From an uncultured Candidatus Saccharibacteria bacterium (lineage in GTDB: Bacteria; Patescibacteriota; Doudnabacteria; UBA920), in NCBI GenBank assembly GCA_964474825.1, contig CAYYWQ010000001.1, positions 964,048 to 1,028,047 on the forward strand: a stretch of 64,000 nucleotides of DNA. The letters run 5' to 3'. The notes under the pieces were generated by a model. That model ran no database searches. It saw only the letters and a list, made by a program, of their open reading frames with translations, and had not been told where the DNA came from. The position numbers and the translations under genes were made by a program. The number at the start of each line of letters is the position of its first letter. The stretch's first letter is position 1. Positions 38,196 through 38,501 of the stretch are shown one piece after another.

Positions 38196-38501
38196 GCCTC
38201 GGTAGCTCATTGGTAGAGCGTCGCCCTGAATCTTTGGGGCCATTCGCCGCAAGGCGGATTGAGAAAAACTGGGTGAACTCGGGGAAACTCTTGATACAAC
38301 ATCAAGACAATCCCGAACCAAGTTCCGAAGGGTTCCATAAAACTTATGGAAGTTTCGGAAAAGGCGTAGAGACTAGCAGGTGAGTCCCAACAATAACCCT
38401 GCACAAGCGCCCAGCTCCCGTTAACAACGGGATGATGATATAGTCCAACTTAGCCTTGGAAGAGGCGAGCGTAGTCAGTTCGATTCTGACCCGAGGCACC
38501 A
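38196..38501 (+). tRNA. tRNA-Phe(GAA) interrupted by a group I intron
   Basis: The exons reassemble to a canonical cloverleaf: acceptor GCCTCGG/CCGAGGC, D-arm GCTC-ATTGGTA-GAGC, anticodon stem TCGCC/GGCGA, loop CU|GAAGA, T-arm GTCAG-TTCGATT-CTGAC, discriminator A, and CCA. Confidence 0.75.
38228..38458 (+). other. Group I self-splicing intron (~231 nt) in the anticodon loop, after U33
   Basis: The 5' exon ends in U, which pairs with a GGGG guide sequence 9 nt into the intron (P1). P2 is GCCGCAAGGCGG with a GNRA loop. The core block GCGTAGAGACTAGCAGG closely matches the Azoarcus tRNA-Ile intron P7 region (GUGUAGAGACUAGACGG). The intron ends with a terminal G. Confidence 0.7.

Follow-up and report, generated by a model that had tools for sequence, protein, structure and literature searches.

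Group I introns in the tRNA genes of Patescibacteria were recently surveyed across 95 complete genomes by Nakagawa et al. 2026 (mSystems, PMC13011429), whose Table S5 concerns 333 introns. The Patescibacteria tRNA introns were found to be nearly all of subgroup IA and none of subgroup IC (PMC13011429). Earlier, with Williams 2020, the known settings of introns in tRNAs had risen from 4 to 21. The closest described relative of the element reported here is the Phe (GAA) 33/34 intron of GCA_016699995.1 (Doudnabacteria), which appears in Table 1 and Table S3 of the survey (PMC13011429). Each tool finds a single tRNA-Phe gene in that complete genome, the split one (PMC13011429), so the split gene must work there. 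Nakagawa et al. 2026 sought endonuclease genes inside the introns only and judged intron mobility to be limited (PMC13011429). The 64-kb stretch of DNA analyzed here (the window) contains a further member of this already published family of tRNA-Phe 33/34 group I introns of Patescibacteria, and as such it brings nothing categorically new in biology. Two parts of the case are worth pursuing: a helix between the intron tail and the 3' exon, and a linked gene with a LAGLIDADG fold.

Judged from the sequence, positions 38196-38501 of the plus strand almost certainly represent a tRNA-Phe(GAA) gene in which a group I intron of 231 nt (38228-38458) separates U33 from G34, an intron which combines the common catalytic core with an extra hairpin between P7 and P3', lacks an endonuclease gene, belongs to the Doudnabacteria family described in 2026, and would be removed by splicing. 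The 5' exon (38196..38227), delimited by running ARAGORN with introns allowed and again on the joined exons, comprises tRNA positions 1-33 and ends with U33 (U38227); its final GCCCU pairs with the guide sequence of the intron. The 3' exon (38459..38501), also delimited by ARAGORN, runs from the anticodon GAA (38459-38461) through the discriminator base A38498 to an encoded CCA (38499-38501). The acceptor stem pairs GCCTCGG (38196-38202) with CCGAGGC (38491-38497), and the anticodon stem pairs TCGCC (38221-38225) with GGCGA (38464-38468). Excision of 38228-38458 links GCCTCGGTAGCTCATTGGTAGAGCGTCGCCCT to GAAGAGGCGAGCGTAGTCAGTTCGATTCTGACCCGAGGCACCA, closes the anticodon loop as CU-GAA-GA, and yields what ARAGORN recognizes as a canonical 75-nt tRNA-Phe(gaa) with perfect stems.

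The gene at 38196-38501 was missed both by ARAGORN in its default mode and by the Rfam tRNA model, while ARAGORN -i reported a tRNA-Phe(gaa) at 38196-38501 with a 231-nt intron. ARAGORN draws the boundary after G34, one base further on, as G38458 and G38459 are identical. The two placements give the same mature tRNA, but only U33|G34 provides the U at position -1 and the P1 U.G wobble on which group I chemistry relies, together with a final G, as is true of 26/26 homologues. ARAGORN found no second tRNA-Phe gene within the 64-kb window. Default tRNA finders would make such a genome look devoid of tRNA-Phe, and intron-aware calling recovers what is possibly its sole tRNA-Phe gene.

The intron was identified by its match to Rfam RF00028 (Intron_gpI), by homologues at the same site, and by covariation. 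RF00028 matched 38218-38468 (+) with 76.1 bits (gathering threshold, 50; E 1.5e-17) over model positions 1-253, the full model, and this was the sole group I match in 64 kb. A search of 37900-38620 with permissive filters returned no other Rfam family over 38228-38458, and there is no ORF of note within the intron. In addition to the covariance model score, the intron shows the P1 U.G wobble, an omega-G with P10, a P3-P8/P4-P6 core with the P3/P7 pseudoknot, and a G-C pair in P7 beside a bulged A, as group I introns do.

The internal guide sequence UCUUUGGGGC (38231..38240) serves both exons, forming P1 and P10. In P1, exon bases GCCCU (38223-38227) pair with GGGGC (38236-38240) through the U38227.G38236 wobble, three C-G pairs, and one G-C pair, with a two-pair extension within the intron; the GGGG guide opens at G38236, the 9th intron base. 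The 5-bp P10 pairs UCUUU (38231-38235) with GAAGA of the 3' exon (38459-38463). P2 (38245..38256) is a CGCC-GCAA-GGCG hairpin with a GNRA loop, and all four of its pairs covary. P3 (38269-38275 with 38408-38414), which together with P7 makes the core pseudoknot, is paired in 98.4% of alignment cells, and three of its pairs change on both sides; P4 (38279-38284 with 38311-38316) is nearly invariant, with 99.4% of cells paired. P5 (38289-38295 with 38301-38307) is followed by a long extended P6/P6a/P6b stem (38318-38364), in which 7/7 pairs of P6a covary. In P7, GAGACUA (38369-38375) pairs with UAGUCC (38441-38446), A38370 being bulged; 98.1% of cells are paired, and 2/6 pairs never vary. By analogy, G38371-C38445 would occupy the position of the guanosine-binding pair, the model for this assignment being the A263 bulge and G264-C311 pair of Tetrahymena. 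Between P7 and P3' lies an extra, P7.1-like hairpin of 27 nt (38376..38402; GCAGG...CCUGC) with the conserved loop UGAGUCCCAACAAUAA, an insertion relative to the Rfam model in which 5/5 stem pairs covary. The P8 hairpin, UCCCGU/ACGGGA (38416..38432), completes the core, and a 3' tail of 12 nt (38447-38458) leads from P7 to omega-G38458, the last base. A P9 hairpin is absent from the window intron, and several homologues have an equally short stretch between P7 and omega-G.

This anatomy bears out most of the original prediction, which had called a tRNA-Phe(GAA) with a group I intron of ~231 nt inserted after U33; the RF00028 score, the ARAGORN rebuild, and the helices all agree with that call. 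Its acceptor stem, anticodon stem, and CU-GAA-GA loop were each found where it had placed them, as were the final U of the 5' exon paired with a GGGG guide 9 nt into the intron (U38227.G38236), the GNRA-capped P2 (CGCC/GGCG with a GCAA loop), and the terminal G, G38458, an omega-G that the homologues have as well. Among the checks and refuting conditions it had named, a covariance model search with RF00028 (76.1 bits, E 1.5e-17), intron-aware tRNA calling (done here with ARAGORN -i), and folding of the P3-P7 pseudoknot (98.4% and 98.1% of cells paired in P3 and P7, respectively) went in its favor.

A further claim, that a core block nearly matches the P7 region of the Azoarcus tRNA-Ile intron, comes down to the R/P7 block, which is also present in IC3 introns; the intron overall is not Azoarcus-like, given the extra hairpin between P7 and P3'. 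The Azoarcus intron, a small bacterial tRNA intron of subgroup IC3, presumably has the R/P7 element GUAGAGACUAG in common with the window intron. It is inserted at 36/37, has a 3-bp exon part of P1, and leaves the anticodon stem intact, whereas P1 of the window intron invades the stem; it also has no hairpin between P7 and P3', where the window intron has one. An extra hairpin in this interval is a hallmark of IA introns, and the window intron is therefore not an Azoarcus-like IC3 intron. IC3 introns of the Azoarcus and Anabaena type have nothing inserted between P7 and P3' and, in the classical tRNA introns, spare the anticodon stem of the exons; the window intron departs from them in the 27-nt hairpin inserted after P7 and in a P1 that pairs with stem positions 29-31. 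The P7/P3' interval holds one covarying hairpin (38376-38402) in the window and two in some homologues. The element GTAGAGACT also occurs in the IC3 tRNA-Ile2 introns of the Nakagawa et al. 2026 supplement (PMC13011429).

A scan for homologues with the restrictive pattern GGTAGAGCNNNNNNCTGAATCTTNGGG, taking one genome per species, returned 29 loci, 2 of which are truncated where their own sequence ends. In 25 of the 29, the tRNA-Phe(GAA) is complete and interrupted after U33, the intron measuring 198-286 nt and having a terminal G, and L024 is a twenty-sixth homologous locus, bringing the total to 26 further species-level genomes. The names on the records include Ryan-, Wolfe-, Yanofsky-, Staskawicz-, Andersen-, Magasanikii-, and Berkelbacteria, Saccharibacteria, and "Patescibacteria group." Three contigs with a split tRNA-Phe (L007, L019, and L020) are labeled Gammaproteobacteria and may be misbinned; L007 also has the linked ORF described below. 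One locus, L003 (Capnocytophaga), was rejected as a homologue, being a pattern match without a tRNA; about one chance match was estimated for 20 specified bases in the collection. The top identity of the split gene to the 29 scanned loci was 78%. Global pairwise identity gave no separation of the family from the other introns compared and was dropped as a family criterion, and motifs and helices were therefore used to define the family. The original prediction had regarded a tRNA-Phe host with an insertion at 33/34 as unusual, a view that does not survive the comparison: 33/34 is the classical insertion position in tRNA-fMet (PMC13011429), GCA_016699995.1 is published, and the 26 further species-level genomes share the arrangement.

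Covariation was counted on alignment A1, which holds 26 sequences, the window intron and 25 homologous introns at the same site. Across these sequences, 88.4% of cells are paired in the structure as drawn, against 76.3% in shuffles. Because the aligned sequences are related, the shuffle controls overstate significance, and their counts should not be read as probabilities. When the 3' partner is slid by +/-1 column, pairing falls to ~49%; this control, like the variety of pair types seen, agrees with the shuffle result. Changes on both sides were seen in 33 pairs. Covariation occurs in P2, P3, P6a, and the extra hairpin, P4 and P7 hardly vary, and the R/P7 block GCGTAGAGACTAG is invariant across the alignment. 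A U at -1 and a G at omega were conserved in 26/26 homologues, and the U.G pair of P1 in 26/26 sequences. Within P1, exon position 30 pairs with the guide as C-G in 14 sequences and as G-C in 12, and the guide therefore tracks the host tRNA. One locus at the same tRNA-Phe site (L004:82-316, minus strand) has an intron whose 5' half is family-like and whose 3' half is different; the hairpin after P7 is missing, AAGAGAGAGTCC and a P9 hairpin are present, as in IC3 introns, and the linked ORF still adjoins the intron. The L004 intron could have arisen by recombination or could represent an older form.

The window intron and that of GCA_016699995.1 share the host gene, the U33|G34 site, and the phylum, and they can be aligned. 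Both have the start GAATCTT.GGG, GGGTGAACTCGGGGAA, GTAGAGACTAG.AGGTGAG, CCCAACAATAA, and GATGATATAGTCCAA. The elements in common are P3-P4, the S element, and the R/P7 block together with the CCCAACAATAA motif of the P7.1 loop. They differ in length (211 nt there versus 231 nt here), in P2 and the P6 extension, in the sequence of the tRNA, in the tail helix (5 bp there versus 3 bp here), and in the RF00028 score (56.9 bits there versus 76.1 here). The tRNA-Asn/tRNA-Asp 35/36 introns of Patescibacteria, which self-splice in vitro (PMC13011429), come from the same phylum, have the same core and a similar size (196-234 nt), and, like the window intron, are mostly without an internal endonuclease gene. 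The tRNA-Asn intron of the construct spliced in vitro carries the hairpin GAGACTAG.AG.GTGAG.CCCAACAATAA, with the P7.1 loop motif also seen in the window. These introns lie two bases further 3' (35/36) in other tRNAs, have other P1/P10 guides, and retain a P9 hairpin. The cyanobacterial tRNA-fMet 33/34 intron (fMet.2Ug) occupies the same anticodon-loop position as the window intron, but it is IC3, resides in another host tRNA and phylum, and in some copies has a gene for a PD-(D/E)XK endonuclease inside.

Insertion at 33/34 has a consequence for the fold of the precursor. P1 occupies tRNA positions 29-33, and the anticodon stem is formed by 27-31 with 39-43; P1 and the anticodon stem therefore cannot coexist. 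In the majority of homologues, the final 5-8 bases of the intron ahead of omega-G repeat the 5' strand of the anticodon stem and are able to pair with its 3' strand in the exon. In the window, the tail bases GCC (38453..38455) mimic this strand and pair with GGC of the 3' exon (38464-38466), a helix of 3 bp that reaches 4-5 bp in most homologues (for example, CACGC/GCGUG in L006, GACGC/GCGUC in L022, and CAGGC/GCCUG in L020). Tails form a mean of 4.08 contiguous base pairs with their own exon and 2.72 with the exons of other loci, and 0/5000 permutations were as high. The tail of L006 is unable to pair with the guide, which makes the 3' exon the likelier partner. These pairings suggest a strand swap in which the guide would bind the 5' strand of the stem and the tail its 3' strand, the two strands rejoining only after ligation; such a design would be forced by the 33/34 insertion position. 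We found no earlier description of covariation between the tail and the 3' strand of the anticodon stem in the literature examined.

From the sequence, the model match, the helices, and the covariation, all of which are observed, we infer the catalysis, the order of its steps, and the role of the tail helix as follows. The tRNA-Phe precursor is probably cotranscribed with tRNA-Val. The guide GGGGC (38236-40) would form P1, with its U33.G38236 wobble, by drawing GCCCU (exon bases 29-33) away from the anticodon stem, and the intron 3' tail would hold the 3' strand of the anticodon stem freed by P1. The G38371-C38445 pair in P7 would then bind a free guanosine, which would attack the 38227/38228 bond. 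Omega-G38458 would next enter the guanosine site, P10 (UCUUU/GAAGA) would align the 3' exon, and U33 would attack the 38458/38459 bond, leaving ligated exons to refold into the 75-nt tRNA-Phe with its encoded CCA. The window intron is on this account likely to be self-splicing.

The tRNA-Val(UAC) gene (37977..38053, plus strand) is preceded by a promoter-like site (37924-37952) and separated from tRNA-Phe by a 142-nt spacer (38054-38195). The spacer is strongly structured (-61.9 kcal/mol for 38051-38195, z = -5.0), the region contains a 17-nt inverted repeat (38052-68 with 38127-43) that is 94% complementary, and no Rfam family matches 38054-38195. In relatives the same spacer measures just 16-67 nt, and the 142-nt spacer therefore looks like a lineage-specific insertion. 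A hairpin (38501-38539) follows tRNA-Phe. Elsewhere in the window is a tRNA-Ile with anticodon UAU (50669-50745, plus strand), a tRNA also present in the related loci L021 and L024.

Eighty nucleotides after the split tRNA-Phe, and behind a strong promoter-like site (38541-38569), lies a gene on the plus strand (38582..39274) for a protein of 230 amino acids with an N-terminal helix-turn-helix (HTH) domain and a C-terminal domain predicted to have a LAGLIDADG fold. The protein has >500 homologues, almost all of them unnamed proteins of Patescibacteria. Its HTH match in Pfam is weak; Pfam searches with 42 family members returned HTH only and no match to a LAGLIDADG model, and NCBIfam, phmmer, and a profile search against the PDB likewise returned only the HTH domain. 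The fold came from AlphaFold, with predictions run on substrings of database proteins, which had a pLDDT of 87 at full length and 84 over residues 88-230 and contained a long helix besides the HTH domain and an alpha-beta domain with the predicted LAGLIDADG arrangement. The full-length model scored 6.9 against I-DmoI, and the model of residues 88-230 scored 7.0 against WhiA, 6.9 against an intein endonuclease domain, 6.8 against I-DmoI, 6.6 against I-Tsp061I, 6.5 against E-DreI, and 6.2 against Thermotoga WhiA; WhiA, an inactive LAGLIDADG derivative, is as good a match to the protein as the true endonucleases are. Helix 1 of the LAGLIDADG-fold domain ends in a G..LYWxEG motif that is invariant, including its Glu, in orthologues and paralogues. 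On these predicted structures, the protein may be a free-standing homing endonuclease; it may instead act as a maturase or regulator. The published Doudnabacteria genome has a second gene (L032:794-1444, minus strand), which matches LAGLIDADG_3 of Pfam weakly and lies ~100 nt upstream of the tRNA-Val/tRNA-Phe pair, and profile comparison of this gene with the linked ORF family detected no similarity.

The gene and the intron are linked in other genomes. With tblastn, orthologues of 40-59% identity were found adjoining split tRNA-Phe in ten scanned loci, in downstream, upstream, or divergent positions. The ortholog in GCA_016699995.1 begins 77 nt after the tRNA, versus 80 nt here. Sampling from the protein side placed 9/9 orthologue groups, including the published Doudnabacteria genome, within ~80 nt of an intron-bearing tRNA-Phe. 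This linkage is far from chance, even with shared ancestry allowed for, because the published rate of split tRNA-Phe is 1/95 complete genomes (PMC13011429). We found no earlier description of a link between this gene and intron-bearing tRNA-Phe in the literature examined. The gene is absent from nine intron-bearing loci with adequate flanks, about half of such loci (L002, L006, L012, L019, L020, L023, L027, L028, and L029). Upstream of the intron-bearing tRNA-Phe in one of these, a 19-codon stretch (L002:2574-2630, minus strand) resembles the C terminus of the protein (E 0.026) and may be a decayed remnant of the linked gene. Paralogues of ~30% identity (L021:6426-7073, L021:392-1003, L014:3845-4471, L024:2501-3016, and L040:737-1360) lie 20-90 nt from intronless tRNA genes, namely, Val-UAC, Arg-UCG, Arg-UCU, and Ile-UAU, and the wider protein family is therefore tied to tRNA genes generally. 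A reading of the ORF purely as an intron endonuclease is weakened by these paralogues.

It is conceivable, though we put this forward only tentatively and would not bet on it, that the tRNA-Phe intron is mobilized in trans by the neighboring free-standing gene (38582-39274) through collaborative homing, with uninterrupted tRNA-Phe genes as the targets of cutting. In such a scheme, a homodimer of the protein would cut the near-palindromic DNA of the anticodon arm in uninterrupted tRNA-Phe genes, the intron at 33/34 would destroy the cut site and so shield its carrier, and repair would copy intron and gene together. Collaborative homing has, to our knowledge, been shown so far in phages only. 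The same linkage could instead reflect splicing: the LAGLIDADG-fold protein might act as a trans maturase that stabilizes a minimal ribozyme lacking P9, so that the intron would need a protein helper. LAGLIDADG maturases exist, the fold suits one, with WhiA and I-DmoI matching equally well, and the adjacency of orthologues to the intron-bearing gene in 9/9 sampled groups is what this explanation would expect. Yet about half of the adequately flanked intron-bearing loci lack the gene, and the intron therefore persists without the protein; moreover, the N-terminal HTH suggests DNA binding, and the paralogues reside beside intronless tRNA genes. We consider a maturase improbable.

Two further explanations concern the intron itself. 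Were it a decaying relic that no longer splices, 38196-38501 would be a tRNA pseudogene, and the functional tRNA-Phe would lie elsewhere in the genome. Our view spans 64 kb of that genome, and this copy, with its missing P9 hairpin and weak tail helix, could be taken to be degenerating. Decay is hard to square, however, with core helices that are all intact and keep the invariant bases of P4 and P7, with exons that give a perfect cloverleaf, with an RF00028 score above that of the published homologue (76.1 versus 56.9 bits), and with a published complete genome in which the split gene is the only tRNA-Phe (PMC13011429); this explanation is very unlikely. The chance that the resemblance to group I introns is accidental, or that the insert belongs instead among the protein-spliced introns of the archaeal type, the group II introns, or the insertion sequences, is negligible. 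It has in its favor that the gene is missed by standard tRNA finders, and nothing more, and it is refuted by the group I model match (E 1.5e-17), by covariation in the group I helices, and by the permissive Rfam search, which found no other family over 38228-38458; nor does the intron hold an ORF of note.

Endonuclease activity of the linked protein, if it has any, would account for the spread of an intron lacking its own endonuclease gene over many Patescibacteria lineages. Should collaborative homing be correct, the published inference of low mobility for Patescibacteria tRNA introns would need revision, and the tRNA-adjacent paralogues would belong to a larger group of selfish endonucleases directed at tRNA genes. 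The arrangement recalls the psbA intron of cyanophage S-PM2 and F-CphI (Zeng, Bonocora and Shub 2009, via PMC6083498), in which an intron lacking an endonuclease gene likewise stands beside a free-standing gene of endonuclease fold. As in S-PM2, the linked gene is optional among the intron-bearing genomes considered here. The two systems differ in that F-CphI has an Endo VII motif, a protein gene of a phage as host, and demonstrated cleavage, whereas the gene at the tRNA-Phe locus has a predicted LAGLIDADG fold and its intron resides in a bacterial tRNA gene.
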